Shown here: piece by piece, positions 3,029-48,312 of the stretch | How the letters are laid out: each line of letters starts with the position of its first letter | Numbering within the stretch: the first letter of the stretch is position 1 | Source: an uncultured Spirochaetales bacterium | Lineage (GTDB): Bacteria > Spirochaetota > Spirochaetia > JAFGXN01 | DNA length: 64,000 bases | NCBI GenBank assembly: GCA_949289575.1 | Contig: CASEOG010000001.1 | Span: 24,671-88,670 of the forward strand | Direction of reading: 5' to 3' | The notes under the pieces: model-generated | Told to the model about the DNA's origin: nothing | The model's input: only the letters and a program-made list of their open reading frames with translations | Database searches by the model: none | Position numbers and translations under genes: made by a program

Positions 3029-4945
3029 ATGGGAAAAATTATCGGAATTGACTTGGGAACAACAAACTCTTGTGTCGCCGTTGTCGACGGCAACGAACCG
3101 ATTGTCATTCAGAACGCGGAAGGTCAGAGAACCACTCCGTCGATTGTGGCGTTTACCAACAAAGACGAACGGCTTGTCGGACAGACCGCCAAAAACCAGA
3201 TGGTGACCAACCCCGAAAATACCGTTTTCTCGATTAAACGGTTTATGGGACGCCGCTTCAGCGAAGTCAGCGAAGAAATCAAACTGGTCCCCTACCACGT
3301 CGCCGCCGGTGCCTCCGGAGATGTGCGTGTGAAGATCAACTCGAAAGAATACTCTGCCCCCGAAATTTCGGCAGCAATTCTGCAGAAAATGAAACAGACG
3401 GCGGAAGATTATCTGGGCGAAACCGTCAGCGAAGCGGTCATCACCGTTCCGGCTTACTTCAACGACGCTCAGAGACAGGCCACCAAAGATGCCGGAAAAA
3501 TCGCCGGTCTGGAAGTCAAACGAATCGTCAACGAACCGACAGCCGCCGCATTGGCTTACGGTTTGGGGAAAGCCAACAAAGACGAAACGATCGCCGTTTA
3601 CGACTTGGGCGGAGGAACATTCGATATTTCCATTTTGGAATTGGGCGACGGTGTTTTCGAAGTCAAATCGACCAACGGTGACACCCACCTGGGCGGCGAC
3701 AACTTCGACAAAAAGATCATGGATTGGCTCATCTCCGAGTTTAAAGCGCAAACGGGAATCGATCTCAGTCAGGACAGAATGGCTTTGCAGAGATTGAGAG
3801 AAGCGGCCGAAAAAGCCAAAATCGAACTCTCCAGCAAACAGAACGCCGACATCAACCTGCCGTTCATTTCCGCGGGACCTGCCGGACCGATTCACCTGAC
3901 CAACAGTCTTTCCCGGGCGAAATTCGAACAGATGACAGCCGACCTGGTCGAAGCCACCAGGACTCCCTGTCTGAACGCCCTCAAAGATGCGGGACTGCAG
4001 GCCTCCGATATCGACGAAGTCATTCTTGTCGGCGGATCGACCCGTATTCCGGCGGTTCAGGAACTGGTCAAGCAACTGTTCGGCAAAGAGCCGCACAAAG
4101 GGGTTAACCCGGACGAAGTGGTTGCCATGGGCGCCGCCATTCAGGGCGGTATTCTGGCCGGCGACGTTAACGACGTCCTGCTGCTGGATGTCACTCCCCT
4201 TTCGCTGGGAATCGAAACGCTGGGCGGCATCTGCACCCGTCTGATCGAACGGAATACCACCATTCCGACCAAGAAGAGTCAGATTTTCAGCACGGCAGCC
4301 GATAACCAGACGGCGGTTTCCATCCACGTTCTGCAGGGAGAGCGGGAACAGGCTTCGGCCAACAGAACTCTGGGCCGTTTCGACCTGACCGAAATTCCGC
4401 CGGCACCGAGAGGCGTTCCTCAAATCGAAGTCACTTTCGACATCGACGCCAACGGTATCGTGCACGTTTCGGCAAAAGATTTGGGCACCGGCAAAGAGCA
4501 GAAAATCCGCATCGAGTCTTCTTCCGGTTTGAGCGAAAGCGAAATCGAAAAGATGGTGAAAGATGCCGAAGCAAACGCCGAAGCCGACAAAAAGCTGAAA
4601 GAAACAGCCGAAGCCCGCAACCAGGCCGACAGCATGATTTATGCAACGGAGAAGGCTCTGAAAGATTACGGCGATAAAGTTTCGGCCGATGAGAAGGCCA
4701 ACATCGAAACAGCCATTGCCGACCTGAAAAAAGCGATGGAAAGCAATTCGGCGGATGAAATGAAAGCCAAGACCGAAGCTCTGGCTCAGGCTTCCCACAA
4801 ACTGGCCGAAGAAGTTTACAAAACTTCTCAGGGACAGCCCGGTGCCGGACAGCCCGGTAACGATGCGGGCGCCTCCGCATCGGCCGGCAGCGGCAACGAA
4901 AAGAAACCGGATGCCGATGACGCCGACTTCGAAGTTGTGAACTGA
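3029..4945 (+). CDS. dnaK: Molecular chaperone DnaK (Hsp70)
   Basis: 638 aa with the Hsp70 signatures [22 protein letters not shown] and [11 protein letters not shown], and a C-terminal ...[10 protein letters not shown]. Confidence 0.97.
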
Positions 4946-4964
4946 GTAACGGAGGAAACCGAAA

Positions 4965-6107
4965 TTGGCTGCAAAGCGTGATTATTACGAAGTCCTGGGA
5001 GTTTCCAAAACGGCTTCCAAAGACGAAATCAAAAAAGCTTATCGAAAACTGGCTATCAAGTATCACCCTGACAAAAATCAGGGTGATGCTTCTGCCGAAG
5101 AGAAGTTTAAAGAAGCAACGGAAGCCTACGACGTTTTGAGCGACGAAAAAAAGCGCGATGCATACGACCGTTACGGACATGCCGGTGTCGATAACATGGG
5201 GCACGATTACAGCCACGTGTATCACGATTTTTCCGATATCTTCGGCAGCGGCGGAGATTTTTCCGATATTTTCAGTTCTTTTTTCGGAGGCGGCGGATTC
5301 GGAGGATTCGGCGGCGGGTCGCGCGGAACTTCGTTTGCCGGCAGCGATTTACGCTACAATCTGACAATTTCGTTTAAAGATGCCGTTTTCGGAACAGCGA
5401 CCGAAGTTTCCTACACACGCAACATTGCCTGTGACGAATGCGGCGGCAGCGGCGCCAAAAAAGGCACGACGCCGAAAACCTGTCCGCAGTGTAACGGACG
5501 CGGTCAGGTTCACCGCAGTGCCGGTTTCTTCCAAATGGCCACCACCTGTCCCCAATGCAACGGACAGGGCGTTGTTATCGAAAATCCGTGTCCCAAATGT
5601 TCCGGGAAAGGGGTTCTGAAAGCCAATCAGAAAATCAAGATCACCATACCGCCGGGAATCGAATCGGGACAAAGACTGAGGGTTCCCGGACAGGGCAATG
5701 CGGGACCGAACAACAGCCGCGCAGGCGACCTGTACGTCAGCGTAACAGTCAAACCCCACCCCTATTTCGAACGGGACGGGCACAATCTGTACGTTATGAT
5801 ACCCATCGCCTTTACCCAGGCGGCGCTCGGATCGGAAGTTACGGTGACAACCATCGATGACAAAAAAATAAAAGTCAAAATCCCGGCCGGAACCCCCAAC
5901 GGAAAACTGCTGAAACTGAAAGGTTACGGCGTTCCTTACGGCGCCAATACCTCTTCAAGGGGCGATTTTTACATTAAACTCGCCATCCGGACACCGGAAA
6001 AAATGAACTCCAAAGCAAAATCATTGCTGCAGGAGTTCGCCAAAGAATACGGCGAAAACAGCGAACCGACCCCGGTCGAGCTCTCCAAAATCGGGAACAT
6101 CGGATGA
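4965..6107 (+). CDS. dnaJ: Molecular chaperone DnaJ
   Basis: The J-domain reads DYYEVLGV...[16 protein letters not shown], followed by a G/F-rich linker and four CxxCxGxG zinc-finger repeats. It starts at a TTG with a GGAGGA ribosome-binding site. Confidence 0.95.
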
Positions 6108-6832
6108 GAACGATTTACGGATTTCACGCCATCGAAGAAGCTTACCGCAAATATCCGCACGGCACACTGCTGGCGGCCGAGAGATTGAATGATCGGGCCG
6201 CCAAAATCAAAGAAGAAGCTGTCCGTGCCGGCATAAAAGTCATGACCGTCTCCGATGAAGAGATCCGCCGTCTCTCCGGCGTTGCCGACTGCAAAGGCCT
6301 GCTCTACCGATGCCGCAGTATCCGCGAAAATTATTCATCGCTTCACGACTTTTTAAAGGCAATCGGCAGCCGGGAAGAAGTCCGGATTTTTATTTTGGAT
6401 TCGGTGACCGATCCCCACAACTTCGGAGCCATCCTGCGGAGCGTCGACCAGTTCGACATGGATCTGGTCATCACCCGGAACAAACGCAGTGCCAAAGAAA
6501 ACGACACGGTAGCCGTCACCTCGGCCGGAGCCGTCAATTACGTCAACACCCTGTCGGTCACCAATCTCAACACCGCCATCGACGAGTTAAAAGACAACGG
6601 CTTTTGGGTCTACGGTGCCGACATCCGCGGTACGGAGCTGCCGCAGGCAAAACTGAACGGCCGCATCGCGGTCGTAATGGGAAGCGAAGGCAAAGGACTC
6701 AGCCGCCTGACCGCCGAAAAGTGCGACGGAAAAATCACCATTCCCACCTGCGGCAACATCGACTCACTCAATGTCAGCGTCGCCGCCGGTATTCTGATGT
6801 ACGAAATCCGCCGTCAAACCCGACAGCTCTAA
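6104..6832 (+). CDS. TrmH/SpoU-family RNA 2'-O-methyltransferase
   Basis: 242 aa. The C-terminal SpoU methylase motifs are present (...[13 protein letters not shown]..., ...[14 protein letters not shown]...). Its ATG overlaps the dnaJ stop in an ATGA arrangement. Confidence 0.75.
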
Positions 6833-7329
6833 GCTTTAATCTGAAAACGGTCCAGCAGTAAAAGAAGAATCTCGGCTACCGGCGGACAAACCTCACCGTT
6901 AAGCTCCGTTTTTTTTAATACCTCTTTGGTCATGCCGTCGAGCAGATGCGGAAATTCGCGGCACGCTTTCGGCCGGTCATTGTAAACCAGACACCGGTTA
7001 TCATCACAGAGAAAAGGACACGGCATCTCGGCAAAGACATAATCGCCGTCTTCGTCGGTTTTCAGATAGCAGGAAATAAACTGCTTTTTTTTCATCCGGA
7101 AATAGTCCGACAGCCGCTCGATGTCTTTATCGAGAAACATCGGTCCCAAACCGGTACAGCAGTTGGCGCACTGCGTACAGTCGTACCTGAAAAAAATCTC
7201 CTGGTATAAAGGGTAAAAAAGAGAATCAAGTTCCTTTTTCGGCCTTTGATTCAGAAAACGAAACAGCGCCTTAATCCGCTTTTTCTCGGCGCGGTAGCGC
7301 ACCAGCATCTGCTCATAATCATCTCTCAT
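6829..7329 (-). CDS. YkgJ-family (CxxCxxCC) zinc/iron-chelating cysteine-cluster protein
   Basis: Cysteine clusters TQCANCCTG and CPFLCDDNRCLVYNDRPKACREFP. The start is taken as the ATG at 7329, which is preceded by GGAGGG; the ORF-track extension to 7386 would overlap the kinase gene by 68 bp. Confidence 0.6.
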   Translation of the reverse strand: MRDDYEQMLVRYRAEKKRIKALFRFLNQRPKKELDSLFYPLYQEIFFRYDCTQCANCCTGLGPMFLDKDIERLSDYFRMKKKQFISCYLKTDEDGDYVFAEMPCPFLCDDNRCLVYNDRPKACREFPHLLDGMTKEVLKKTELNGEVCPPVAEILLLLLDRFQIKA

Positions 7330-8728
7330 ACAAACCCTCCGGAGAAACGGCAATATCCGATTGTCCGCTCTCGACCGACGACACATAAATCGGGACGGTA
7401 ATCATCATCACCGCACCGCCGGCCGGATGATTAAAACAGGAAATCTCTCCGTTATGCAGCTCGATAATCGACCGGACCGACGACAACCCCAAACCGAAAC
7501 CGGGTAAATTACGGTTGCGGTTGCTGCGGTAAAACAGCTCGAAAACATTCTTCTGTTCCTCTTCCGGAATTCCGGAACCGTTATCGCGAACCGTATAAAC
7601 CAGATTGTGCTCATCGCAACGACAGGCAATTTCTACCAAAGGCGATTCGGCATTGCTGTACTTCATCGCATTGTCAAACAAATTTTCGAAACAGCGCAAC
7701 AGCAGCTTCGTATTGCCTTTGATCTTCAAATCGGTCGGAAAATCGACCACCGTCTGCAGCTCGACATGACGCGCCCGCGCCTCTTTTTTAAACATCTTCA
7801 TTGTTGTCTGCAAAAACGGATAAACATCAATCGGCAGAAAACTGCCGGCCAGGCTTCCCGAATCAAAGACCGCATATTCAATCAGACTGAGAATCCGACG
7901 CTCGAGCAAATCGGCCTTCTCTTTCATGATATCGATATATTCGTCGTACTCCTCGTCGCTTTGCGGAATTCCGTCCTGTATGGCCTCCAGATACCCCTTA
8001 ATGGACGTCAGAGGCGTCTTCAAATCGTGGGAAACGGCGAGGAAAAAGCGGGATCGACGCTCTTCCTCCTCTCTCAACTTGCCGGCCATCATTTCGACGG
8101 CGGAAAAAAGTCCGCCGAAATCGCCGGAACGCTCCTCCTCCGAAAAAGCCGTATCGATCTGTCCTGCTGCAACCGAAACAATGGCTTTCTCCAACGTTTT
8201 CAGACTCGAACGAAGCTTGGTGACCACCCGCATCGATAAAATGGCGGGAACCACGAGAAGAACAATCGAAATCAGAATGACGGAGGGAATCACCTGAGTC
8301 ATCCGGTTGGAGACTTTCCCCATCCAGCGGGAAAAATAGATCAGTGTTCCGTACGAATCCTTGTACTGATAGCGGGTAAAAACCAGTCCTCGGTCGGTAT
8401 AGTGATCGGTAATCAGCTGAAGAATATCACTACCGGAAAGCAGATTTTTTTTTGTAAAAATACGCGGATTCAGGTAATGAATCTTGCCGGAATTGTCGAG
8501 CACAAGCAGAATCTCGGAATCAAGCGATACATCATTACCGTCGGCCGGCTCAAAGACCTTTTTGACAAGACGGTGCATATTCCACGGTGCTCCGATTTGC
8601 GTTTTTTCGTTATAAACATACTGCCCGTGAGAAAGGCCCGAATAGAGAATGGCAAAAACAATCACACAGACCAGTGAAGGGACAACGATACCGTAGATCA
8701 GCAAGAGAAGCTTGGACTGAATTTTCAC
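7319..8728 (-). CDS. Sensor histidine kinase (HAMP-HisKA-HATPase_c)
   Basis: 469 aa with two transmembrane segments, an H-box (AVSHDLKTPLTSIKGY), and N/G boxes (FDNAMKYS..., RDNGSGIP, GFGLGLS). Confidence 0.85.
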   Translation of the reverse strand: MKIQSKLLLLIYGIVVPSLVCVIVFAILYSGLSHGQYVYNEKTQIGAPWNMHRLVKKVFEPADGNDVSLDSEILLVLDNSGKIHYLNPRIFTKKNLLSGSDILQLITDHYTDRGLVFTRYQYKDSYGTLIYFSRWMGKVSNRMTQVIPSVILISIVLLVVPAILSMRVVTKLRSSLKTLEKAIVSVAAGQIDTAFSEEERSGDFGGLFSAVEMMAGKLREEEERRSRFFLAVSHDLKTPLTSIKGYLEAIQDGIPQSDEEYDEYIDIMKEKADLLERRILSLIEYAVFDSGSLAGSFLPIDVYPFLQTTMKMFKKEARARHVELQTVVDFPTDLKIKGNTKLLLRCFENLFDNAMKYSNAESPLVEIACRCDEHNLVYTVRDNGSGIPEEEQKNVFELFYRSNRNRNLPGFGLGLSSVRSIIELHNGEISCFNHPAGGAVMMITVPIYVSSVESGQSDIAVSPEGLYER

Positions 8729-9402
8729 TGCAGATAATAGCCTTTTCCGTAAACCGTTTTCAGGAATTCGGGGAACGAAGAATTGGTCTCCAGCCGGTCG
8801 CGAATTCTGCGGATGTGAACGGGAATCGTCGAAATATCGCCGTGCCCGTTACCCCAAATGGCCGAGTAAAGCTCTTCCGCCGAAATAATCTGTCCCCGAC
8901 GCTTGGCCAGATAAATCAGAAGTTCCAGCTCTTTCGGCCGCAGCTTGACTCGGACACCGTTCTTTTTGAGACAAAACGACTCCGGATCGATAATATAATC
9001 ACCGAAAACATAACAATCGCTTTCCTTCTCCGTTGTTTTTTTCTGTCTCTGTATATGAGTCCGAACACGTGCCGTCAGAACACGCGGCGAGAACGGCTTA
9101 CACACAAAATCATCGGCCCCCATTCCGAAGCCGAGCAGCATATCGGCATCCTCGTTACGTGCCGAAACAATGATAACCGGCGTATCACGGGACGCGCGAA
9201 TCTTTTGAAGAACTTCATAACCGTCGATTCCGGGCAGACTCAAATCGAGAATCACCAAATCAAACGTTTCGTTCTGAAACAGCTCGATTCCTTCTTCTCC
9301 TGTCGCTACCGCCACGGCATCGATGCCCTCTTTTTTCAAATAAGCGGAAATCAAACCGGAAATTTCCGTCTCATCTTCAACAATCAATACACGTGCCTGC
9401 AT
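8725..9402 (-). CDS. OmpR/PhoB-family response regulator
   Basis: A REC domain (VLIVEDE...LVILDLSLPGIDG) followed by a C-terminal winged-helix domain (...VHIRRIRDRLE...). Its stop overlaps the start of the kinase gene. Confidence 0.85.
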   Translation of the reverse strand: MQARVLIVEDETEISGLISAYLKKEGIDAVAVATGEEGIELFQNETFDLVILDLSLPGIDGYEVLQKIRASRDTPVIIVSARNEDADMLLGFGMGADDFVCKPFSPRVLTARVRTHIQRQKKTTEKESDCYVFGDYIIDPESFCLKKNGVRVKLRPKELELLIYLAKRRGQIISAEELYSAIWGNGHGDISTIPVHIRRIRDRLETNSSFPEFLKTVYGKGYYLQ

Positions 9403-9442
9403 AAAAAATCCTCACTTTATCTTATCACCTTATTTTATCATA

Positions 9443-11059
9443 TTATTTTAAATTTCCGAAACACTTTTTTACAACTTCGCTGTTTCCGACCTTTGTGCAG
9501 AGCGAGACAATCACCGTCACCGCGGCCGACACCGGCAACGCGTAAACCAGCGGATCGACGAAGCGGAAGCTGTTCATCACCGCGGCCGGCGTTCCGAAAA
9601 GCAGCTGCGGCAAACCGAACACCGCCGATTCGGCTTCGTGGAAAAAGAGAAAGCCGATCACCGCCGCGGCCAGGCCCGACAGCATGCCGGCAATCACCCC
9701 GGTCTTCGTCAGACGCTTCCAGTAAAGCGACAGCAGAAACGGCGCCAGATAACCGGAGGCCATAATACCGAAGAAAATCGACGTGGCGCGGGCAATAATC
9801 CCCGCCCCCATTTTCATCGACAGGAAAATCGTCAGCAGAATCGCCGCAATAATCCCGATGCGGGAAATCAGCACCGAATAACGGCTGTGAATGCGCCCGC
9901 GCGCCGCCGCCTCGAACAGATCGCGGCCGAAGGAAACGCCGATGGCGTGGAACTGACTGCTGAGCGTACTGATAGCCGCCGACAAAATCACCAGCATAAA
10001 GAAATAGGAAAACCAGCCGGGCATCGCCTGCTTAATCAGCAGCGGAATGACACTGTCGGCATTGAAACCGGCCGCCTCCAGCGCCAGTTTGCCGCTTTTT
10101 TCGTAGAAAAAGACATTCGATAACGCCCCGAGAACGTAAGGCGTGGCCACGGTAATCAGAATAAAAAGACCGCCGACCACAACCGCCCGGTTTAACTCGC
10201 GGTTGCTTTTGACGGTGAGGCAGCGCACCGCCAGATGCGGCTGCGCCAGCACCCCGATACCGACGCCGAACACCAGCGACGAATAGAGCACCCACCACAG
10301 CTGCGAAAACGGCTGCGGCGAAGAGAGCCAGCCGCGGTGTCCCTGCGCCGCCGAGGCTTCGGGAACCAGCTCCTTCATGGCGTGAAGTTTGGAAAAGGCC
10401 TCGACGGGACCGCCCAGCCTGACAAACATCGCCACCAGAAGAAAAATCATTCCGAGCGCCATTAAAGTGCCCTGAAGCGCATCGGTGTACATCACCCCGC
10501 GCAATCCGCCGACCAGAACATAAACGGCCACCAGCAGCGAAAAAGCGGCCAACGCCCATTCGTACGGCATCCCCAGCAGACTTTCCAGAATGCGGGCAGC
10601 GCCGATGAGCACCGCCGCCGCATACAACGGCATGGAAACGACCATCACCGCCGCGGTAAACAGCCGCACAAAGGGAGAAGAAACGCGCGCCCCCAGAAAC
10701 TCCGGAAAGGTGTGCGCATTCAACGCCAGCCCCACCGCGCGGGTGCGCCGGCCGAAAACGGCAAAGGCCAGAAAAATTCCGAAAAAGATATTGGCACCGG
10801 CCAGCCACAGAAGACTGAGACCGATTCCGGCCGCCATTCCTCCGAAACCGACAATGGCCGAGGTGGAAATAAAGGCGGCTCCGTAGCTGAGCGCCATTAC
10901 GAAAGGCGGAATGTTGCGCCCCCCGGAAGCAAAATCGTCGCCGTTGCGGGAAGTAATCCGTCCCCAATAACTGAGAAAGGCAATCGCTCCCAGATAGACA
11001 ACAACAACCGCCAGCAAAACGAAAATATTGACATCGAGCGTCACACTGACCGGATTCAC
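9443..11059 (-). CDS. Sodium:solute symporter family transporter (PutP/PanF-like)
   Basis: 538 aa and polytopic, with the general SSF architecture. Confidence 0.7.
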   Translation of the reverse strand: MNPVSVTLDVNIFVLLAVVVVYLGAIAFLSYWGRITSRNGDDFASGGRNIPPFVMALSYGAAFISTSAIVGFGGMAAGIGLSLLWLAGANIFFGIFLAFAVFGRRTRAVGLALNAHTFPEFLGARVSSPFVRLFTAAVMVVSMPLYAAAVLIGAARILESLLGMPYEWALAAFSLLVAVYVLVGGLRGVMYTDALQGTLMALGMIFLLVAMFVRLGGPVEAFSKLHAMKELVPEASAAQGHRGWLSSPQPFSQLWWVLYSSLVFGVGIGVLAQPHLAVRCLTVKSNRELNRAVVVGGLFILITVATPYVLGALSNVFFYEKSGKLALEAAGFNADSVIPLLIKQAMPGWFSYFFMLVILSAAISTLSSQFHAIGVSFGRDLFEAAARGRIHSRYSVLISRIGIIAAILLTIFLSMKMGAGIIARATSIFFGIMASGYLAPFLLSLYWKRLTKTGVIAGMLSGLAAAVIGFLFFHEAESAVFGLPQLLFGTPAAVMNSFRFVDPLVYALPVSAAVTVIVSLCTKVGNSEVVKKCFGNLK

Positions 11060-11247
11060 CGCACACCTCCCGTCAGCTCGTCATCGATACGCTCCTCTTC
11101 CTCCTGCCACCGCGCTTCCTGTTCCTTTTCTTTGCGGGAGAGCACCGCCTCGCGGGCGCCGGCCACGACGCCGTAGACGACACACAGCAGCGCCGAAGCC
11201 AAAAGAAACACGGCACCGAAAAGAACGCTGAACTCGCCGCCTGTCAT
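11056..11247 (-). CDS. Small membrane protein co-translated with the symporter (YhdT/DUF997-like accessory subunit?)
   Basis: 63 aa with one hydrophobic helix and a charged tail. It overlaps the neighbouring genes by 4 bp on both sides, like the small gene upstream of E. coli panF. Confidence 0.4.
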   Translation of the reverse strand: MTGGEFSVLFGAVFLLASALLCVVYGVVAGAREAVLSRKEKEQEARWQEEEERIDDELTGGVR

Positions 11248-12440
11248 TTTGCCGCCTTTTTGCAGTCGGCAAACGCCTTTTCGAAATACGGCAGCGAATT
11301 GAGAATCACCTTATCGGGTACGCAGTAGGAAATGCGGAAATAACCGGGGTACGAGAAGCCGCGTCCGGGAACCGTCAGAATATTGTACTGCGCCAGCCGC
11401 TCGCAATCGGCCGCATCGTCCCCCGACGGCGCTTTGACAAACAGATAAAAGGTGCCCTGCGGTTCGACAAACTCGTAACCGATAGCCGCCAAACCGTCGC
11501 ACAACAGCTTGCGCCGCCGGTCGTAAATGGCAATATCGACCCCGCAATCCTGCGGCAGACGGGCGATGACCCGCTGCATCAGCGACGGAGCGTTGACAAA
11601 ACCGAGAATCCGGTTGCACAATATAAAGCCGGCAACAAGCCGTTCGGCATCTTCGGCCGCCGGGTTCAGGGCAATGTAGCCCAACCGCTCGCCCGGAATG
11701 GAAAGCTCCTTGGAAAAAGAGTTGACCACCACCGCATGCGGATATTTATCGAAAAGAGAAGGCACCGTGCGCCCGCCGTAAACGATGCGGCGGTACGGTT
11801 CGTCGCTGATGAGATAAACGGCGCGCCCCGTCTCTTTCTGTTTGCGCAGCAGCATTTGAGAGAGCTTTTCCAGCACCTGCTGCGAATAAATGTGCCCCGA
11901 CGGATTGTTGGGTGAATTGATAATGAGAGCCGCCGTGCGCGGAGTGATGGCCGCTTCCAGTGCCTCGATATCGGGATCGAAATCGGGCGCACACGGAACC
12001 GTTTTAAAAACGCCGCCGTGGTTTTCGGTATAAAAGCGGTACTCCATAAAACAGGGCGCCGGCGCCAGCACCTCGTCGCCCGGGTTGAGAATCGTCTTTA
12101 AAACAACGTTCAACGCTCCCCCGGCGCCGCAGGTCATCACCACACAGCCGGCCGGAACCGCCGTGTTCTGTTCGGCGGACACACGAGCCGCCACCGCCTC
12201 GCGCGCTTCCTGATGGCCGGCGTTGGACATGTAGCCGTATTTGTTTTCACCCGGGGTGCGGACCCATTCGACGATTTTTTCCTCGAACACCGCCGGAGGT
12301 GCCGCATCGGGATTGCCCAAACTGAAATCGAACACCGCATCGGCACCGTATTTTTGGCGCAGCTCGTTGCCGCGCTCGAACATTTTTCTGATAAACGAAC
12401 CGCCCTCAATCGCGGCCGCCGTTCTTTCCGAGATAGCCAT
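11244..12440 (-). CDS. PLP-dependent aminotransferase, class I (aspartate/alanine aminotransferase family)
   Basis: 398 aa. The fold-type I lysine-region motif is present (...NSFSKELSIPGERLGY...). Confidence 0.8.
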   Translation of the reverse strand: MAISERTAAAIEGGSFIRKMFERGNELRQKYGADAVFDFSLGNPDAAPPAVFEEKIVEWVRTPGENKYGYMSNAGHQEAREAVAARVSAEQNTAVPAGCVVMTCGAGGALNVVLKTILNPGDEVLAPAPCFMEYRFYTENHGGVFKTVPCAPDFDPDIEALEAAITPRTAALIINSPNNPSGHIYSQQVLEKLSQMLLRKQKETGRAVYLISDEPYRRIVYGGRTVPSLFDKYPHAVVVNSFSKELSIPGERLGYIALNPAAEDAERLVAGFILCNRILGFVNAPSLMQRVIARLPQDCGVDIAIYDRRRKLLCDGLAAIGYEFVEPQGTFYLFVKAPSGDDAADCERLAQYNILTVPGRGFSYPGYFRISYCVPDKVILNSLPYFEKAFADCKKAAK

Positions 12441-12555
12441 AAATACTCCTGTGTTTCCATTATATACAAAAGAAGAAAAAAAGACCAGACCCCGCTACGA
12501 ACGATAGGCGGTAAGATTCACCCGTCTTATACCGCCGAACGGAAACAATTTGTTA

Positions 12556-12584
12556 TTGAAAAAATGACTTTTTCGATATATAAT
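12556..12584 (+). promoter_or_regulatory. Near-consensus sigma70 promoter TTGAAA-17-TATAAT driving the islet gene
   Basis: TTGAAA at 12556-12561, an exact 17-nt spacer and TATAAT at 12579-12584, about 40 bp upstream of the ATG at 12627. A GAGGAAA ribosome-binding site lies at 12614-12620. Confidence 0.55.
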
Positions 12585-12626
12585 TAATTGATAATATACT
12601 TTAAAATCTTTTCAGAGGAAATTCTG

Positions 12627-13529
12627 ATGGCAGATATCAAGCTTTTCAATATCAAAGGTGAAGTTAAAGAATATCAAAGCGGTACGGTTACACTGGAAAA
12701 AGAATTACAAACAATTATCGAGAAAAACATGGAAACCTTTTTCGGTGTCACCTTTTTAGCTACGGAATATCGTACCACCGACGGCGGAAGAATGGATAGC
12801 ATCGGTATTGACGAAAACCATTGTCCTGTTATCTTTGAATACAAACGATCAATGAAAGATAATGTCATCAATCAGGGTTTATTTTATCTGAACTGGCTTC
12901 TTGACCATAAAGACAGTTTTAAAGTGCTCGTTATTGAAAAACTGGGGCTAAATGCTGCCGAAAATATCGATTGGTCTATGCCCCGTGTTGTTTGTATTGC
13001 CGGTGATTTTACAAAATATGACGAATCTGCCATTAAACAAATGAATCGAAATATCAGTCTCATTCGCTATAAAAAATTTGATGAAGATTTACTTATGTTT
13101 GAGCATCTCAATGAAAATACTGTTCCCTCCTTCGTTGACGAAACATCCGATGTATCGATATCAAAACAAAAAAACGCTCAAAGATCATTTGCGGCAAAAA
13201 AGAAAGAGGCATCGCCAGAAATCATCGCTCTATACGAAGACCTAAGAAACTATATATTAAGTCTCGGAGACGATATTACGGAAAATCAACTCAAACATTA
13301 TGTGGCATTTAAAAAGATGAAAAACATCGCCTGCATCGAGATTTTTCATAACCGTCTTATTATGCATCTTAAGTTGAACTCTGATTCCGTTAATTATGAA
13401 GACGGATTTACCCGCAACACATCCCAAATCGGTCATTACGGGACCGGTAATGTGGAAGTCACTATTCGCAACAGAATCGATTACGAAAAAGCAAAACCCT
13501 TATTGGACAGATCCTATAACGAAAATTAA
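12627..13529 (+). CDS. PD-(D/E)xK nuclease-superfamily protein (NucS/DUF91-like N-terminal domain plus an uncharacterised C-terminal domain), encoded on a low-GC islet
   Basis: 300 aa. The N-terminus reads ...EKELQTIIEKNMETFFGVTFLATEYRTTDGGRMDSIGIDENHCPVIFEYKRSMKDNVINQGLFYLNW..., which gives the D-x(n)-E-x-K pattern (D..IFEYK) and the usual restriction-endonuclease-like spacing. The gene is about 33% GC against roughly 52% in the flanks, and has its own promoter and terminator. Confidence 0.6.
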   Translation: MADIKLFNIKGEVKEYQSGTVTLEKELQTIIEKNMETFFGVTFLATEYRTTDGGRMDSIGIDENHCPVIFEYKRSMKDNVINQGLFYLNWLLDHKDSFKVLVIEKLGLNAAENIDWSMPRVVCIAGDFTKYDESAIKQMNRNISLIRYKKFDEDLLMFEHLNENTVPSFVDETSDVSISKQKNAQRSFAAKKKEASPEIIALYEDLRNYILSLGDDITENQLKHYVAFKKMKNIACIEIFHNRLIMHLKLNSDSVNYEDGFTRNTSQIGHYGTGNVEVTIRNRIDYEKAKPLLDRSYNEN

Positions 13530-13623
13530 AGCAAATTTTCAAAAACCCGAACCCTTTTCCCCCTTTCCTCATCCCCACCCGAAGATGATTTCGGTGACTC
13601 GTTTATATGAGACTTTCTCCGGA

Positions 13624-13661
13624 AACTCTGAGAGATTTCTAAAAAACTCTCAGAGTTTTTT
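13624..13661 (+). terminator. Rho-independent terminator of the islet gene
   Basis: An 11-bp perfect stem (aactctgagag at 13624-13634 pairing with ctctcagagtt at 13647-13657), a 12-nt loop, then TTTTTT. Confidence 0.6.
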
Positions 13662-13709
13662 AAAAAACATAGGACGTTTTTCGAGTTTTTTAGAAAACGT
13701 AGGACGTTT
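13653..13709 (+). repeat. Two tandem 27-bp imperfect direct repeats, each containing an AAAACGT-AGG-ACGTTT palindrome
   Basis: Copy 1 is gagttttttaaaaaacataggacgttt at 13653-13679 and copy 2 is gagttttttagaaaacgtaggacgttt at 13683-13709. They are 25/27 identical with a 30-bp period, and sit about 100 bp upstream of the GGDEF gene. Confidence 0.6.
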
Positions 13710-13806
13710 GTTCGGTCAGAACGGGAATCTGTTCTCCGCGGCATAAAAATTATCCTGTACAAACCGGAGAGAATATGCTAACATTGGAAATATCGGAAAT
13801 ATTTTT

Positions 13807-14808
13807 ATGGATGATTTGCGGCAAACACAAAGAAAAGCGCCGGGCAATGAGAAAACGCTCAAACGGAAAATCGAAGACCTGACCTCGTTCATGGTGCGCA
13901 AACATTACTGCGAAAACGATACCAAAGCACTCATCGATTTGATAGAAGAGCCTTTCAGCTGGATCGGTGCGGGAGAGCAGGAATATGCTGTCGGTGCGGA
14001 GAATGTGATTTCCGCCTTCCGGCAGTTTTCCGGGAAGGTGCCGTCCTGCATTGTCTCCGACGAGCACTACGATGCTGTCCCTATCGGAGAGGGTATCTGG
14101 CTGTGTTCGGGTCATTATCGGGTGCAGACCGACCCGTCAACGGAAACATTTCTGCGTGTTCACCAGCGTATTACCGCCGTTTTCCGAATGAAAGATGACG
14201 GATCTTTCTGCTGCTCCCACATCCACATTTCCAATCCCTACAGCGAGATGAATGATACCGATATCGGTTTCCCGACGCAAATGGCCAACGATTCGCGCGA
14301 ATATCTGCGCGAGCAGATTGCGGCTCAAAAGAAACTGATTGACAGGCAGACACAGCGGCTGATGCAACTCAGTTTCCGGGATACGATGACAGGACTTTAT
14401 AACCGCAACAAATTTAATCAGGAAATGCACAAAAGAACGCGACGGGAAGAAAAATCACTTCCTTTGGGAGTTGCCTATTTCGATCTCAACGGACTGAAAG
14501 AAGAAAACGACCGCTTCGGCCACGAAGCCGGCGACAAGCTGATAATCCGAACCGCCGACCATATTAACCGTTCTTTCGGTGACAAGACATACCGCATCGG
14601 AGGAGACGAGTTTGTGGTTATCGACAGGGAATCCGATGAACGGCAGTTCGTCTCGCTGATTGAAACGGTTCGCGAAAACCTGAAGCTGGACGGCATCAGT
14701 GTTTCGGTCGGCGTCCGGTGGCGGGCCGGCGGCGGCAACATTACAGAGCAGTTTCATGAAGCCGATCGGCTGATGTATGAAGAGAAACACCGTTTTTACC
14801 GCGACTGA
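13807..14808 (+). CDS. Diguanylate cyclase (GGDEF domain) with an N-terminal NTF2/SnoaL-like sensor domain
   Basis: The C-terminal GGDEF domain has an intact active site (YRIGGDEFVV) and the ...FDLNGLKEENDRFGHEAGD... region. The N-terminal 150 aa resemble an NTF2-like fold (...GHYRVQTDPSTETFLRVHQRITAVFRMKDDGSF...). The start codon is uncertain because no clear ribosome-binding site is visible. Confidence 0.8.
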   Translation: MDDLRQTQRKAPGNEKTLKRKIEDLTSFMVRKHYCENDTKALIDLIEEPFSWIGAGEQEYAVGAENVISAFRQFSGKVPSCIVSDEHYDAVPIGEGIWLCSGHYRVQTDPSTETFLRVHQRITAVFRMKDDGSFCCSHIHISNPYSEMNDTDIGFPTQMANDSREYLREQIAAQKKLIDRQTQRLMQLSFRDTMTGLYNRNKFNQEMHKRTRREEKSLPLGVAYFDLNGLKEENDRFGHEAGDKLIIRTADHINRSFGDKTYRIGGDEFVVIDRESDERQFVSLIETVRENLKLDGISVSVGVRWRAGGGNITEQFHEADRLMYEEKHRFYRD

Positions 14809-14820
14809 AACGGGAGGGAT

Positions 14821-15471
14821 ATGAAGCATCGTCGATTGCGAATCACGGTTTTGTCGTTCATTTGGGGAATTCTGTTTCCGCTTTCCCTGACGGCGCACCC
14901 CCACGTTTTTATGGACTGCCGCACCGAGCTGCTGTGGGAGAACGGCCGGCCGGCACGCTGCCGGATTGAATGGGTTTTCGACCGTTTTTTCAGCAGCGAT
15001 ATTATCAGAGGCTTCGACCGGGACGGAGACGGCCGCTTCAATGAGAAAGAGAAAGAGGCGGTTTATAACGGCGCCTTTATCAATCTGAAAAATTACGGCT
15101 ATTTTACCTTGATTCGTGCGCAGGGAAAAACTTTCCGCCCCGAGACGGTTTCCGGTTTTACCGCCTCCCATTCCGGCGGAAGACTGACCTATTCGTTTAC
15201 CGTCGATATTCCCGAAGAGGCGGCTCTGCCCTTTTCGATTGCCGTTTACGATGTCACTTTTTTCTGCAGCATCGAATACGATGCCGACCGGCCGATTCTC
15301 TTTCGCAATGTGCCTGCCGGACAAAAGGTTTCTTACCGCGTGGTGCAGACAAAGGAAAATCCGGTTTATTATAATCCGATGGGAGCGGTCAACGACAATG
15401 CGGTCTACAACGAATGGAAGCCGGGGCTGGAAACCTTTTACCCGATTGAAATCGAAGTGAGTGCCCGATGA
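14821..15471 (+). CDS. DUF1007-family periplasmic protein (partner of NicO-type Ni/Co transporters; COG3683-like)
   Basis: A signal peptide is followed by the HPHVFMDCRTELLW motif typical of DUF1007. Its stop overlaps the next start by 4 bp. Confidence 0.6.
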   Translation: MKHRRLRITVLSFIWGILFPLSLTAHPHVFMDCRTELLWENGRPARCRIEWVFDRFFSSDIIRGFDRDGDGRFNEKEKEAVYNGAFINLKNYGYFTLIRAQGKTFRPETVSGFTASHSGGRLTYSFTVDIPEEAALPFSIAVYDVTFFCSIEYDADRPILFRNVPAGQKVSYRVVQTKENPVYYNPMGAVNDNAVYNEWKPGLETFYPIEIEVSAR

Positions 15472-17438
15472 GACGGACGGTTCTCTTTCTCTTTTTTCTG
15501 GCGGTGTCGGCCGGTGCGTTATGGGGCAATCCTTTTTTTTCGGCACCCGACGCGGGCAACACCGATTCGCCCTCGTCGGCAAACGAAACCACGGTGCAGC
15601 CGGCGCCCGTCCGTTCGCAGGCTGTTTCCGCCGATTCGGCACGGACGCAAAAACATCTGCGGGAAAAAATGGGCGATCTCCTCGACCGGATGGCTCATCC
15701 TCAGTCGCCTCGGGAACGCCGTTCGTTGCTGATTTCGCTGTTTCTGCTGTCGTTTGCCTACGGTGTGTTTCACGCTTCGGGGCCGGGGCACCGGAAAACG
15801 TTGGTTTTCGGACTTTATACGGGGCGCCGGGCGCCGGTTTGGGAACCGGCTCTGACCTCTTTTCTGCTGGCGTTTCTCCACGGCGGTTCGGCAGTCATTC
15901 TGATTCTTCTGTTTAAAGGGGTGGAAGGTTCGCTCGGACAGCGCATCGACCGGTTTGCTCTTTACATGGAAGGCTTTTCGTATCTGCTGATTATTCTTCT
16001 TGCCGTTGCCATTTTTGCCGGTGCGGCGGTCGAATATGCTGCTTTTTTAAAAGGACGTCAAAAGAAAGCCCGTTTTTCCGGTTATTTTCTTTTTCTTCTT
16101 TCGGGTCTCTATCCGTGTCCGGGAGCGGTGCTGGTGCTGATTCTCTCCTACACGCTCGGGATTCCGGCCTACGGTCTTTTTGCGGTGGCGGCAATGTCGC
16201 TGGGAATGGCTCTGCCGGTTGCGGCCGCCGGTTATCTGGCCTGGTTCGGCCGCGAAGGCATTTTTCTCGCCTGCCGTAAACGAGAGTCGCTTCTGCACCA
16301 TATCACATTCGGCGTCACCGCTTTCAGTTCGCTCTTTCTGATTGGATTTTCGATTTATATCGCGTCGCCCTTTTTCTCGTCGCTGATTCCCCGAAAACCG
16401 TTTTCTCCCGTTGCGGTCGAAACAGAGGCCGATTTACGCACCGTAACCGACTTACTGGGACGCACGGTTACGATTCCCTGCCGGGTCGAGACGGTCGCTA
16501 CCCTCAACAGTGCGGCTCGTCTGGTTGTTTATGCGGGGGCGGCGCACAAATTGTGCGGTGTTACCGAAACAGACCGGAAAGGGGTCGAGGGAATGCCCTA
16601 CTCGTATGTGAATAAACAGTTCTTTTCCGGTTTGACGCTGACCGGTTCGGGCGGCAGCAGCGATACGGTTTTTTCCGAAAATCTGGTGTTGCTCGACCCC
16701 GATGTCGTGTTTGCTTTCACCGGCGACCGAGTGAGACTGGATCGTCTTTCAAAACAGACCTCCCTTCCGATCATCGGTCTCTCCGCATCGGGGATGTTTG
16801 CCGACGATTTTCTCGAATCTCTGACACTCATCGGAACGGTAACCGGCTGCGAGGTCGAAGCGGCACGGGTGGTCGAAGCGTTAAAGGGGTGGCAGACCGA
16901 TTTGACGGTCCGAACGGAAGAAATTGACGACGAAGCAAAACCGACGGTTTACATGGGCGGCATGGGCTTTCGCGGTCCGCACGGGTTTGACGGAACCTGC
17001 GCCCTCTATCCCCCTTTTACCGTCATTGCAGCCGCCCATATTGCCGATTTACCGGGCCGCTCGGGGCCTTTTTTGATGAATCCCGAAACGGTGGCCGCCG
17101 CCGATCCCGATATTATTTTTTTAAATCCTTCCAACCTTCCTCTGATTCGTGAGGATTACAACCGTCACCCCGATTTTTACCGAAGCCTGAAAGCGGTTCG
17201 CGAGGGCCGTCTTTACAGTCAGGTTTCTTATAATTACAATTCGACCAATATGGAAATCGCCGTTGCCGATGCCTACTATGCCGGCACTGTTCTCTACCCC
17301 GAAGCCTTTGCCGATATCGACTTCGCCGCCAAGGCCGAAGAGATTTTCGAAACAATGCTCGGCTGCCGTTATCTGCCGGTACTGGATGCGGCCGGAATCG
17401 GATTTTCGAAACTGTCGCTCGACAAGGAGGCTCCGTGA
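15468..17438 (+). CDS. Fusion protein: NicO/RcnA-family nickel/cobalt permease domain plus a C-terminal TroA/FecB-like (Peripla_BP_2) substrate-binding domain
   Basis: 656 aa. The N-terminal 300 aa are polytopic and carry the NicO signature FHASGPGHRKT (HxxxPGHxK). The C-terminal 330 aa look like a class III substrate-binding protein (...PTVYMGGMGFRGPHGFDG..., ...DPDIIFL...). It is a single uninterrupted ORF. Confidence 0.6.
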   Translation: MRRTVLFLFFLAVSAGALWGNPFFSAPDAGNTDSPSSANETTVQPAPVRSQAVSADSARTQKHLREKMGDLLDRMAHPQSPRERRSLLISLFLLSFAYGVFHASGPGHRKTLVFGLYTGRRAPVWEPALTSFLLAFLHGGSAVILILLFKGVEGSLGQRIDRFALYMEGFSYLLIILLAVAIFAGAAVEYAAFLKGRQKKARFSGYFLFLLSGLYPCPGAVLVLILSYTLGIPAYGLFAVAAMSLGMALPVAAAGYLAWFGREGIFLACRKRESLLHHITFGVTAFSSLFLIGFSIYIASPFFSSLIPRKPFSPVAVETEADLRTVTDLLGRTVTIPCRVETVATLNSAARLVVYAGAAHKLCGVTETDRKGVEGMPYSYVNKQFFSGLTLTGSGGSSDTVFSENLVLLDPDVVFAFTGDRVRLDRLSKQTSLPIIGLSASGMFADDFLESLTLIGTVTGCEVEAARVVEALKGWQTDLTVRTEEIDDEAKPTVYMGGMGFRGPHGFDGTCALYPPFTVIAAAHIADLPGRSGPFLMNPETVAAADPDIIFLNPSNLPLIREDYNRHPDFYRSLKAVREGRLYSQVSYNYNSTNMEIAVADAYYAGTVLYPEAFADIDFAAKAEEIFETMLGCRYLPVLDAAGIGFSKLSLDKEAP

Positions 17439-45919: not shown

Positions 45920-46774
45920 ATGAGGCTTCACTTCCCCGCTTTGTTTGTCAAAAAGAAAATTACCGTTTACGCCCTTGTCGGTCCGAGCGGCACGGGAAAA
46001 AGCTTTCGCTCCAAACTGGTTGCGGAATCACACAACATCGATGTTATCATAGACGACGGCCTTCTGATTAAGGGAAAGCAGATTCTTGCGGGAACTTCGG
46101 CCAAAAGAGCCGATTCGTATCTCGGCGCCGTGCGCATTGCCATCTTTGAAGACGAACAGCATCGGGAAGAAGTCAAAAAAGCGATTCAGGAAGAACATCC
46201 GAAATCGATTCTGGTTCTCGGTACAAGCGACAAAATGATTTCGCGTATCTGCGGAAGACTCGACCTTCCTCAGCCTTTTCTGACAATCAATATCGGTGAC
46301 GTTGCTTCGAAAGAGGAAATCGAGGCGGCTGTCAACGCCAGAAAACGGGGAAAACATGTGATTCCGGTTCCGATTATCGAAGTCGAAAAGAAATATCCTT
46401 CTTCGATCCTCAACGCCCTTCTGATAGCCTTTCCCAGGAATATATTCTCAAAAAAAAAGCGTTTTATCGAAAAAACCGTCGTCCAACCGGATTACGAATC
46501 GCCGGCCGGCACAATCACAATTTCCCAGGCAGCCTTAACCCAAATGCTGATGCACTGCACGGAAGAGTTTGACAAAGACATCAAAATCAAAAAGTTATTT
46601 ATCCGGGAGAACGGCAACACCTACATTCTTAAACTCGGCCTGGAAGTTCCCATTCATTCGTCGCTTCCGTTTCGACTCTCCGAACTTCGGCAGTTTATAA
46701 TAAAAAATATCGAAAAATATACTGGAATTCTTCTCGAAAAAGTCGATATTAATATAGTGAGTATGTCTCAATAA
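45920..46774 (+). CDS. Hypothetical protein with an N-terminal P-loop (Walker A) domain and a C-terminal Asp23/Gls24-like region
   Basis: Walker A (ALVGPSGTGKS) lies within the first 30 aa. The C-terminal 100 aa (...TITISQAALTQMLMHCTEEF...LKLGLEV...GILLEKVDINIV) resemble the Asp23 (alkaline-shock protein) fold. Confidence 0.4.
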   Translation: MRLHFPALFVKKKITVYALVGPSGTGKSFRSKLVAESHNIDVIIDDGLLIKGKQILAGTSAKRADSYLGAVRIAIFEDEQHREEVKKAIQEEHPKSILVLGTSDKMISRICGRLDLPQPFLTINIGDVASKEEIEAAVNARKRGKHVIPVPIIEVEKKYPSSILNALLIAFPRNIFSKKKRFIEKTVVQPDYESPAGTITISQAALTQMLMHCTEEFDKDIKIKKLFIRENGNTYILKLGLEVPIHSSLPFRLSELRQFIIKNIEKYTGILLEKVDINIVSMSQ

Positions 46775-46797
46775 CAATACAGAAGAGGAAAGAGAGA

Positions 46798-48312
46798 ATG
46801 AAACGTTTTTTATTTATCCTATCGGTGACCCTTCTTTCAACCGCAGCCTTTGCCCAATTTTCCGATAAAGTAGTCGAAAGCAAATACTACCAGGTTTACT
46901 TTCAGGAAAACGAAAAAGAGGCCGCACTGATTGCCCAAAAGCTGGACGCCTACTTTGATTTCTACAACAACTACTTTCATTTCGACACATCGGAAATGAA
47001 GAGCCGTCTGAAAGTCAAAATTCTCGGTTCGAAAGAGGCCTACCTCGATTATGTTTCAACGGCAACCGCCATTTCCGAACCGGTATCCACTTTTCTGTTT
47101 ATACAGTACAGGGATGCCTCAAAAAGCGAACTGATCGGATACCGCAAAGACAATACCGAATTCGAAGACACCTTAAGCCATTACAGCTTCATTCAGTTTT
47201 TCAGAAACTTTATTACAAATCCTCCCCTCTGGCTTGAAAAAGGATTTGCCGTTTATTTCGGAAAATCTTTTTACTCGACCTCGAAAAACGCCATTGTGTA
47301 CAAAGAAAATCTGACATGGCTTAACACCTTAAAATCTTTTCTCGACACCGAAAATCCCTCTTTAATCGATTTGAACACTCTTTTTTCCATGAGCAATGAA
47401 GATGTCGTTAAAAACAGCGATCTTTTCTACGCCCAATCCTGGGGTCTCGTCAAATTTCTCATCGAAAACCAGCAGGCGGTTTACAACCGAGTCATTTGGG
47501 ATTCCATCAACAAACTGAAACCGGCTGCATCGAAAGAGGAAAACGAACAGAATGCCAAGCAGGCCTTTGCCTGGCTGGATGCGACGCGATTTTCGAAGGA
47601 TTTTTACGAATACATTACAGCTCTGAAAACATTCCCGCAGCTTGTCGACAGCGGTATTTCTCTTTATGAAAAAGAAGAATACAGCGATGCCAAAATCGCA
47701 CTGATTAAAGCGATCGCGATGGAAGACAAAAATTATATTCCGTACTATTATCTGGGATTAATCCACTATAACACGGAAGATTACGCTATGGCCGACTTCT
47801 ACTACAATTCGGCAATTCAGATGAACGGCGACAAAGCCATCTGTTACTACGCATTGGGTGTGAATGCGTTTGCCGAACAGAATTACGAAAAATCGATTAA
47901 ATGTCTGAAAACAGCTGTTGCCTATTCCGCAGAATACAAAGAAAGAAGCGATAAAATTATCGACAATATCCGAACCATTTTAAGACTCCAGAACAGGACG
48001 ATGGATATTGACGCCATTCAGCCCTACCCCGAAACGACAGCCGTCGAAGAGGAAGAGGTTGCGATTCGTCCCGATATTACGGTGACAACAGTCGAAACAC
48101 AGAAAGAAGAAACGCCGGTCGAAACAACGGCGACAGCCGAAGAGCTTCCCGTTAAAACCGCTCCCGAAACGGTTACACCCGAGAAGGAAAGCAGCAGCGA
48201 AATCCGGGAAACACCTGCCGACACGGTTAATGCCCCGGCTGCTCCTGCCGACGAAGAAGTCAGCCGTTTGCGTCTGAACAAGGATACGGGCGAATACATG
48301 TCCGCAAACTGA
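46798..48312 (+). CDS. TPR-repeat exported protein
   Basis: A signal peptide is followed by TPR-like repeats (...YYYLGLIHYNTEDYAMADFYYNSAIQMNGD...) and a C-terminal Glu/Thr/Pro-rich low-complexity tail. Confidence 0.6.
   Translation: MKRFLFILSVTLLSTAAFAQFSDKVVESKYYQVYFQENEKEAALIAQKLDAYFDFYNNYFHFDTSEMKSRLKVKILGSKEAYLDYVSTATAISEPVSTFLFIQYRDASKSELIGYRKDNTEFEDTLSHYSFIQFFRNFITNPPLWLEKGFAVYFGKSFYSTSKNAIVYKENLTWLNTLKSFLDTENPSLIDLNTLFSMSNEDVVKNSDLFYAQSWGLVKFLIENQQAVYNRVIWDSINKLKPAASKEENEQNAKQAFAWLDATRFSKDFYEYITALKTFPQLVDSGISLYEKEEYSDAKIALIKAIAMEDKNYIPYYYLGLIHYNTEDYAMADFYYNSAIQMNGDKAICYYALGVNAFAEQNYEKSIKCLKTAVAYSAEYKERSDKIIDNIRTILRLQNRTMDIDAIQPYPETTAVEEEEVAIRPDITVTTVETQKEETPVETTATAEELPVKTAPETVTPEKESSSEIRETPADTVNAPAAPADEEVSRLRLNKDTGEYMSAN

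Follow-up and report, generated by a model that had tools for sequence, protein, structure and literature searches.

What is a solitary, low-GC gene doing between an aminotransferase gene and a GGDEF gene in the chromosome of a gut spirochaete? The gene lies in a 64,000-nucleotide stretch of DNA from an uncultured Spirochaetales bacterium (assembly GCA_949289575.1, contig CASEOG010000001.1, forward-strand positions 24,671 to 88,670; "the window" below), and a reading made from the letters alone, here called the original prediction, had taken it for a horizontally acquired, stand-alone PD-(D/E)xK nuclease with a possible role in defence. We find that this open reading frame (ORF) encodes a NucS/EndoMS-type nuclease domain followed by a DUF5655 domain, that it belongs to a family, catalogued as defence candidate PDC-S18, whose members recur in type I restriction-modification (R-M) operons, and that it was acquired horizontally and is held under purifying selection. 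We consider it fairly probable that the product is an autonomous two-domain, defence-type DNA endonuclease that has been orphaned from an R-M context.

The N-terminal half of the protein is a NucS/EndoMS-type PD-(D/E)xK nuclease domain with a complete set of catalytic residues, as had been proposed from the spacing of an Asp and a Glu-x-Lys motif. In an alignment of 76 diverse homologues (31-91% identity) the residues E24, D57, E71, K73, Q83 and Y87 are conserved in 96, 96, 91, 95, 93 and 95% of the sequences, respectively, and these six belong to a larger near-invariant set in this half that also includes Q28, E32, G60, D62, P67, Y72, W90, A125 and D132. The family profile places D57, E71-x-K73 and Q83-xxx-Y87 onto D160, E174-x-K176 and Q187-xxx-Y191 of Pyrococcus abyssi NucS, which we take to be the active-site residues of that enzyme; the register is exact and the E-value of the match is not significant. 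A Pfam scan, for which N-terminal NucS or Mrr_cat hits had been named as support and a family for the C-terminal part as a possible outcome, delivered the C-terminal family above its cutoff (see below), NucS_C at aa 24-91 with only 14.9 bits against a cutoff of 24, and no match to Mrr_cat or to the Mrr N-terminal domain; some other members of the family pass the NucS_C threshold with 33 and 53 bits.

Searches of the PDB gave nothing with the single sequence and only a non-significant NucS match with the profile, so a comparison of folds was needed; a PHROGs profile search of the protein also found no match. An AlphaFold2 model built from the alignment has a pLDDT of 91.3 and a pTM of 0.84, and its sole weak stretch (aa ~165-187, pLDDT 53-66) falls in the linker between the two domains, which has a mean column conservation of 0.16 and varies from 19 to 34 aa over the family. 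With this model Foldseek finds PD-(D/E)xK nucleases as the top structural neighbours, NucS/EndoMS being the closest solved structure (NucS E = 8.6e-5, SduA E = 6e-3), and YjbR with a probability of 0.97. The catalytic D...(D/E)xK lies on the core and is kept across the homologues, which places the protein in the PD-(D/E)xK superfamily, and by these resemblances it would be a metal-dependent DNA endonuclease.

The closeness of NucS/EndoMS raises the question of whether the protein might be a repair or recombination nuclease that acts on mismatched, branched or damaged DNA in the service of the host or of mobile elements and has no immune role. One family member with an N-terminal HIRAN domain, a DNA-end-binding domain, would fit such a role (another member carries two DUF5655 copies), as would Foldseek matches in phages that include proteins annotated as MmcB-like DNA repair, and the gene's stable residence at one chromosomal locus among housekeeping genes in its lineage. 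We nevertheless hold this explanation to be improbable. The active-site pattern D...ExK...QxxxY is the same as in NucS/EndoMS (PDB 2vld, 5gke), but the N-terminal DNA-binding/dimerisation domain of those enzymes is not in the window protein, which has the extra C-terminal DUF5655 domain instead, and the NCBIfam NucS equivalog models stay far below their cutoffs (NF003270, 17.7 versus 216 bits; NF002876, 11.7 versus 252) and align with the catalytic segment only. NucS/EndoMS is, moreover, a lineage-wide housekeeping enzyme, whereas the family at hand is patchy and mobile, being found on plasmids, on prophage-like contigs, next to a Tn7-like element and in R-M operons, and the composition of the present gene is foreign to its host; the two are homologous, not orthologous.

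That the C-terminal part might be of the DUF5655 type had been offered as a guess, and this proved correct: Pfam DUF5655 (PF18899) matches aa 194-299 on profile positions 7-108 of 109 with E = 4.4e-12 and 46.5 bits, well above the curated cutoff of 24. Across the same 76 sequences Y225, N233 and G274 are near-invariant in this half. The domain folds like the "double-wing" domains of YjbR/YdhG, and a DNA-binding role for it is suggested only by this analogy of fold. We also considered whether such binding could be read from charge, and it could not; the domain has a net charge of 0 in the window protein and a median of -2 in the family, and because it is near neutral the electrostatics give no support for DNA binding.

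The protein matches the PADLOC PDC-S18 model PDLC04946 over its full length (aa 1-299 on profile positions 18-322 of 365, E = 3.7e-131, 435 bits) and a second model, PDLC04945, with E = 1e-62. PDC-S18 is a single-gene system, whose proteins are annotated at NCBI as "DUF91/DUF5655 domain-containing protein", and the window protein agrees with thousands of homologues in length and in its two-domain architecture; it is thus a further member of the catalogued PDC-S18/DUF5655 family and not a new kind of system. The PDC list comprises 145 phage defence candidates, which the preprint of the PADLOC authors describes as "untested"; the ground for listing them was that homologues occur inside BREX, DISARM or type I R-M loci (10.1101/2024.01.29.577857). 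The DUF5655/PDC-S18 family is experimentally uncharacterised, though catalogued, and it is large, with 6292 matches at 90% clustering and 2742 representatives at 50% identity, 373 of which have E < 1e-30. Its conservation is unusually high: the best 120 of the 6292 matches are 72-100% identical to the window protein, and those with a name come from metagenome-assembled genomes (MAGs) of Spirochaetia, Clostridia and Oscillospiraceae. Family genes are also present in 43 plasmid records (from Staphylococcus, Acinetobacter, Streptomyces, Cupriavidus, Rhizobium and others), 31 IMG/VR contigs, 3 GenBank phage records and 6 of 5426 complete E. coli genomes, and Bacillus phage G has a member that is recognised by its fold.

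The PADLOC run therefore bears out the proposal of a defence candidate, and the surroundings of the homologues reveal a connection that the original prediction had missed: about a third of the sampled homologues lie within or against type I R-M operons, an association that is new from this analysis. Of the 44 loci sampled, 16 show such linkage, as a rule with the genes co-oriented and with stop and start codons that overlap or almost abut; among the 31 IMG/VR loci, 10 have hsd genes beside the family gene, as detected with hidden Markov models made from the HsdM, HsdS and HsdR proteins of three loci. Two arrangements recur. In a Cupriavidus plasmid, Acinetobacter plasmids, E. coli KL53 and the IMG/VR locus L071 the order is hsdM-hsdS-X-hsdR, where X is the family gene, and overlapping or almost abutting codons are seen in KL53 and Cupriavidus. 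In gut Firmicutes (loci L045, L134 and L137) the gene is an operon leader, HTH-X-hsdM-hsdS-...-hsdR, co-oriented with hsdM and 14-18 bp upstream of it, and is followed by hsdS, embedded genes and hsdR. Outside the spirochaetes, the window protein's closest relatives are of this second kind (P0005 and P0006 at 82-83% identity, P0026 at 80%) and are encoded by the second gene of the operon, after a gene for a 70-72-aa HTH_17 protein; the P0006 contigs are an exception, with a TnpV-like gene upstream instead of the HTH_17 ORF.

Several features of these operons deserve mention on their own account. The HTH_17 (MerR/excisionase-type) ORFs of L045 (9796-10008) and L137 (7790-8008) are 71% identical and overlap the start of the family gene; they may encode the controller protein of these R-M cassettes, and the window has no such ORF. 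Between hsdS and hsdR lie embedded defence-type genes, namely CAP12/Pycsar-type TIR, AbiJ-like, DUF4062 or RelA_SpoT genes (L134 11620-13358, L137 11612-14083, L045 13594-14649). In E. coli KL53 (L143; NZ_CP030919.1, 6703-13979) the hsdM-hsdS-DUF5655-hsdR genes, the third encoding WP_023063267.1, are part of an integrase-bearing island, and a similar copy of the DUF5655 gene is carried by 5 further complete E. coli genomes.

Linkage to R-M genes is not a fixed property of the family. The gene may lead the hsd operon, lie between S and R, follow R or be divergent, and about two thirds of the loci have no hsd gene within 5-10 kb, some of the IMG/VR flanks ending at contig edges. Solitary copies occur on Staphylococcus and Streptomyces plasmids, in a Clostridia MAG, in phage G and at a locus near Cas9 and Cas4-like genes, and many copies, that of the window included, are autonomous. 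In a neighbour-joining tree solo and R-M-linked copies are interleaved, and the window copy, together with its orthologue from Spirochaetia bacterium SUG3664 (GCA_034120015.1; locus L007), is sister to the R-M-leader clade. The window copy itself is not embedded in an R-M operon, as no hsd homologue is present in the 64 kb. A PADLOC scan of 123 ORFs that neighbour solo copies matched 226 families, with at least six type II and three type III methyltransferases, while 123 control ORFs matched 91 families, with type II methyltransferase models in at most one ORF each and DruM cytosine-methylase models once each; this enrichment in defence genes is suggestive at most, since the test set is biased to prophage-like contigs and the counts are per family only.

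The main rival to autonomous action follows from this linkage. The protein could be an accessory or guard that is active only together with type I R-M, for example a latent nuclease restrained by HsdM/S/R and set free when a phage anti-restriction protein disables the enzyme. PrrC is the obvious comparison: in EcoprrI, prrC occupies the slot between hsdS and hsdR, and family members often sit in the same place, among them those of KL53, Acinetobacter, Cupriavidus and L071. It is this gene position alone that is shared, the latent nuclease that backs a type I system being an idea in common by analogy; PrrC is an unrelated, ABC-ATPase-like tRNA nuclease, whereas the window protein is of the PD-(D/E)xK DNA type and has no R-M neighbour. 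The tight coupling of codons in KL53 and Cupriavidus, the co-oriented leader position of the window protein's closest relatives and the definition of PDC candidates by just such embedding (that of prrC in the EcoprrI hsdMSR system is given in 10.1101/2024.01.29.577857) all speak for a guard. Weighed against these are the majority of loci without hsd genes, the interleaving of solo and linked copies, the inconstant position relative to hsd and, for the spirochaete gene, a putative promoter of its own, purifying selection on a solo copy and a window free of hsd genes. We judge a guard to be unlikely; on that view the spirochaete copy would either cooperate with type I R-M genes at some other place in the genome or have been repurposed.

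A wider proposal, which we hold to be doubtful, is that DUF5655/PDC-S18 is a widespread class of DNA nuclease wired to type I restriction, either as a guard DNase in the PrrC slot that fires on R-M neutralisation or as a modification- or structure-reading restriction enzyme with a YjbR-like reader. If it were true, the orphaned and selectively kept spirochaete copy would show that the module works alone. We read the family as a mobile accessory to type I R-M loci, and this family-level picture is not a new category because the PADLOC candidate list already rests on such embedding.

Where did the window copy come from? The islet has a GC content of 0.365 and the ORF one of 0.367, against a window mean of 0.503 and 0.58 and 0.53 in the 2-kb flanks to the left and right; no other 900-nt stretch of the window has so low a GC (z = -3.3, within the 64 kb), and the GC3 of the ORF is 0.37 as compared to 0.59-0.71 for neighbouring genes. 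The contrast to the flanks that had been noted is therefore real, although the value of about 33% given for the islet was slightly too low. Over 37 other loci the GC of the family gene tracks that of its host (0.25-0.69) and lies on average 3.7 points below the flanks; set against this family norm, the deficit of 14-20 points seen here indicates transfer from a low-GC donor. DNA similarity to Firmicute-type homologues (~74%) is restricted to 12613-13530 and stops at the ends of the ORF. The gene is thus of horizontal origin, as anticipated, and the ORF alone was transferred.

The identical protein is encoded on six gut-metagenome contigs with the same neighbours, and 91-92% alleles occupy the same aminotransferase/X/GGDEF locus in SUG3664 and on three more contigs; the insertion therefore predates these lineages and is not strain-specific. 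A comparison of syntenic loci, which had been proposed as a test, accordingly found the islet in the closest relatives and no difference in presence or absence. Scans of genome contigs with the aminotransferase gave only one close genome, and it has the islet; in the next-closest, two spirochaete MAGs with a 79%-identical aminotransferase, the gene order on that side differs and synteny is broken altogether, so that no clean empty site is available. Among metagenome contigs scanned with the flanking aminotransferase nothing was nearer than 55%. A presence/absence polymorphism of the islet was considered and is not supported, as neither genome nor metagenome contigs yielded an empty site.

Against the SUG3664 orthologue the whole gene has a dN/dS of 0.125 with dS about 0.3, the nuclease domain 0.06 (dS 0.16) and the C-terminal domain 0.13 (dS 0.65), and the flanking aminotransferase gene has a dS of 0.09. 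A dN/dS of about 0.1 means that the gene is constrained by purifying selection. Positive selection on the C-terminal half is ruled out by its high dS together with a dN/dS of 0.13; the more divergent 3' half and high dS point to a recombination mosaic of the whole region and not to diversifying selection. We also note that nucleotide identity between window positions 4627-14850 and L007 is itself mosaic (95-100% over 9523-12372, 70-85% over 7000-9500 and 43-79% over 13273-14260), which suggests frequent homologous recombination among related spirochaete lineages.

These data bear on a further explanation, that the gene is a selfish passenger or relic, left from a broken R-M cassette or acting as a toxin-like addiction gene, and of no benefit to the host. 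It would be the only ORF remaining of a probably larger HTH-X-hsdMSR module, and some relatives do keep mobile company: the L134 relative is flanked by a TnpV-like gene, and the contig of L137 carries a Tn7-like transposon (tnsB, tniB, tniQ) and a resolvase gene upstream. Against it, the frame is intact in all six contigs that encode the identical protein and in those carrying the two 91-92% alleles, the dN/dS is about 0.1 over a dS of about 0.3, all catalytic residues are kept, and the ORF list of the window has no antitoxin-like ORF adjoining the nuclease gene. We therefore rate this as the least probable of the alternatives, and very improbable in itself. Remnants of a lost R-M cassette were also sought around the gene and are not there: a similarity search found no hsdM or HTH remnant in the islet flanks.

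The islet is arranged as a unit that is probably expressed on its own, largely as had been described. It holds a single ORF of 300 codons with an ATG start. Two observations support this start: the N-terminal sequence that the homologues share (consensus M-x-x-x-x-L-F in the 76-sequence alignment, MADIKLF in the window protein and its closest homologues) and the ribosome-binding site that had been called good, for which relatives have AAAGGA at the same position. The putative promoter lies 42 nt 5' of the ATG. Shuffled AT-rich sequence also yields such sites (8 were found in this stretch versus 4.5 +/- 2.3 in shuffles, TTGAAA-17-TATAAT scoring best), and the match alone is for that reason weak evidence; its -35 hexamer is unchanged in the 3 relatives compared (L007, L131 and L133), and its -10 hexamer is unchanged in L007 and L131 and has a single substitution (TATACT) in L133. 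It is the near-perfect promoter of the original prediction, and it probably functions as one. Downstream, a hairpin at 13623-13658 with 16-nt arms (94% complementary) and a 4-nt loop precedes TTTTTT and is conserved in relatives. It is probably the terminator that had been foreseen, and an intrinsic one; a strict terminator scan did not call it because the T-run lies partly inside the stem.

In the mechanism that we propose for an autonomous endonuclease, the NucS-type catalytic domain would cut DNA in a metal-dependent manner, and the DUF5655 domain, joined to it by a flexible linker of ~25 aa, would recognise a DNA feature or an infection cue and gate the cleavage. Shedu, enzymes of the Mrr type and CARF/SAVED nucleases are built along such lines, pairing a nuclease core of this kind with a sensor domain, and their cores are structural neighbours of the present one. 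A spirochaete ancestor would have captured only the ORF, from a low-GC donor to which the leader genes of HTH-X-hsdM-hsdS-...-hsdR operons are the closest relatives known; the ORF would have gained or retained a promoter and terminator of its own, and the solitary gene would work by itself against phage or plasmid DNA that enters the cell. Because it is maintained as a solitary gene by purifying selection, it most likely acts autonomously; nuclease activity, a role in defence and gating by the C-terminal domain are what we infer from the family and the architecture.

Several points weigh against this reading. PDC-S18 is a candidate from the "untested" list and has no mention that we could find in the searchable literature; the eight candidates tried in PMC12881386 (seven PDC systems and HEC-01), of which only about half, four, were protective, did not include it. 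In the nearest relatives the gene shares a transcript with type I R-M genes, and the window protein might therefore depend on an R-M partner that the window lacks. The near-neutral DUF5655 domain is not basic, and the YdhG/frataxin-like fold is functionally promiscuous. How self would be told from non-self is not readable from a single gene. Finally, every close relative that was sampled has the gene, fixed at a single locus, which is less typical of defence islands with their fast turnover.

Two other groups of enzymes help to place the protein. Shedu (SduA, DUF4263; PDB 8ps4, 8ti9), a single-gene defence which the protein resembles in core fold and logic only, likewise combines a NucS-like PD-(D/E)xK core with a variable domain that is thought to sense or gate, but its accessory domain is N-terminal, whereas that of the window protein is C-terminal and YjbR-like, and neither the DUF4263 model nor the PADLOC SduA models match the protein in the Pfam and PADLOC scans. 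Mrr-type and other type IV enzymes, as in the immigration control region of E. coli, are also small, stand-alone proteins with a PD-(D/E)xK and a recognition domain and are often near type I R-M genes; their recognition domain has a different fold from DUF5655, and the general design alone is in common. From PDC-S18 itself the window protein has no structural difference. What sets it apart is that it stands alone in a spirochaete chromosome, while the family was nominated for copies embedded in defence systems.

At the level of the window the finding carries little weight, as it adds a further defence-type gene that a gut spirochaete has acquired horizontally. At the level of the family it gives a testable lead: with at least 2,700 clusters at 50% identity this is a large family, and it is highly conserved across phyla, intact in its active site and found repeatedly in R-M operons. 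E. coli strains with the hsdM-hsdS-X-hsdR order (KL53, WP_023063267.1) offer a tractable model in which an independent restriction-like enzyme could be told from a back-up effector of type I restriction.

Table 1. Features of the islet and of its gene, in positions of the window
Feature	Coordinates	Strand	Basis
Low-GC islet between aminotransferase and GGDEF genes	12441..13806		GC and GC3 measurement
Putative sigma-70-like promoter, TTGAAA-17-TATAAT (-35 12556-12561, -10 12579-12584)	12556..12584	+	11 of 12 consensus positions
Ribosome-binding site AGAGGA, 7 nt from ATG	12614..12619	+	Read from sequence
300-aa ORF, member of the DUF5655 / PADLOC PDC-S18 family	12627..13529	+	ORF call, Pfam, PADLOC, homologues
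NucS/EndoMS-type PD-(D/E)xK nuclease domain, aa ~20-165 (E24, D57, E71, K73, Q83, Y87)	12684..13121	+	Alignment, profile, fold comparison
Variable low-confidence linker, aa ~166-190	13122..13196	+	Low pLDDT, low conservation
DUF5655 domain, YjbR/YdhG-like alpha/beta fold, aa ~191-300 (Y225, N233 and G269-H-x-G-x-G274 loop conserved)	13197..13526	+	Pfam match aa 194-299
Hairpin with T-run, probable intrinsic terminator	13623..13661	+	Inverted repeat, kept in relatives
Two 27-nt direct repeats, core AAAACRTAGGACGTTT, 30 nt apart, directly 3' of hairpin	13653..13709	+	Repeat search

The left neighbour of the islet is a class I/II aminotransferase gene (11244-12440, minus strand) and the right neighbour encodes a SnoaL_3+GGDEF protein (13807-14808, plus strand). 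In agreement with the earlier statement that neither a methyltransferase nor an integrase adjoins the ORF, the ORF list and the tRNA and Rfam scans of the islet and its immediate neighbours contain no methyltransferase, integrase, tRNA or Rfam RNA family. The direct repeats of Table 1 lie in an intergenic region that has 3 copies, 2 exact and 1 degenerate, in the relatives L007, L131 and L133, and the AAAACRTAGGACGTTT motif has no further occurrence in the 64 kb; the repeats might serve the downstream GGDEF gene as an operator or represent a small repeat element. Two unrelated loci, in the window (13807-14808) and on an Acinetobacter plasmid (L138, 2296-3882), have a diguanylate cyclase gene next to the family gene or to its R-M operon, which is probably coincidence.

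Directly beside the islet, the window and SUG3664 differ in gene content: the window has at 14821-17438 a DUF1007 gene followed by one for a 656-aa NicO + Peripla_BP_2 fusion, and the equivalent place in SUG3664 (L007 10236-11420) has only a gene for a 394-aa Peripla_BP_2 protein. The sole other stretch of the window with less than 42% GC, 46351-48050, covers a 284-aa ORF without a Pfam match (45920-46774, plus strand) and a gene for a 504-aa TPR protein (46798-48312, plus strand), and it may be a second foreign islet.

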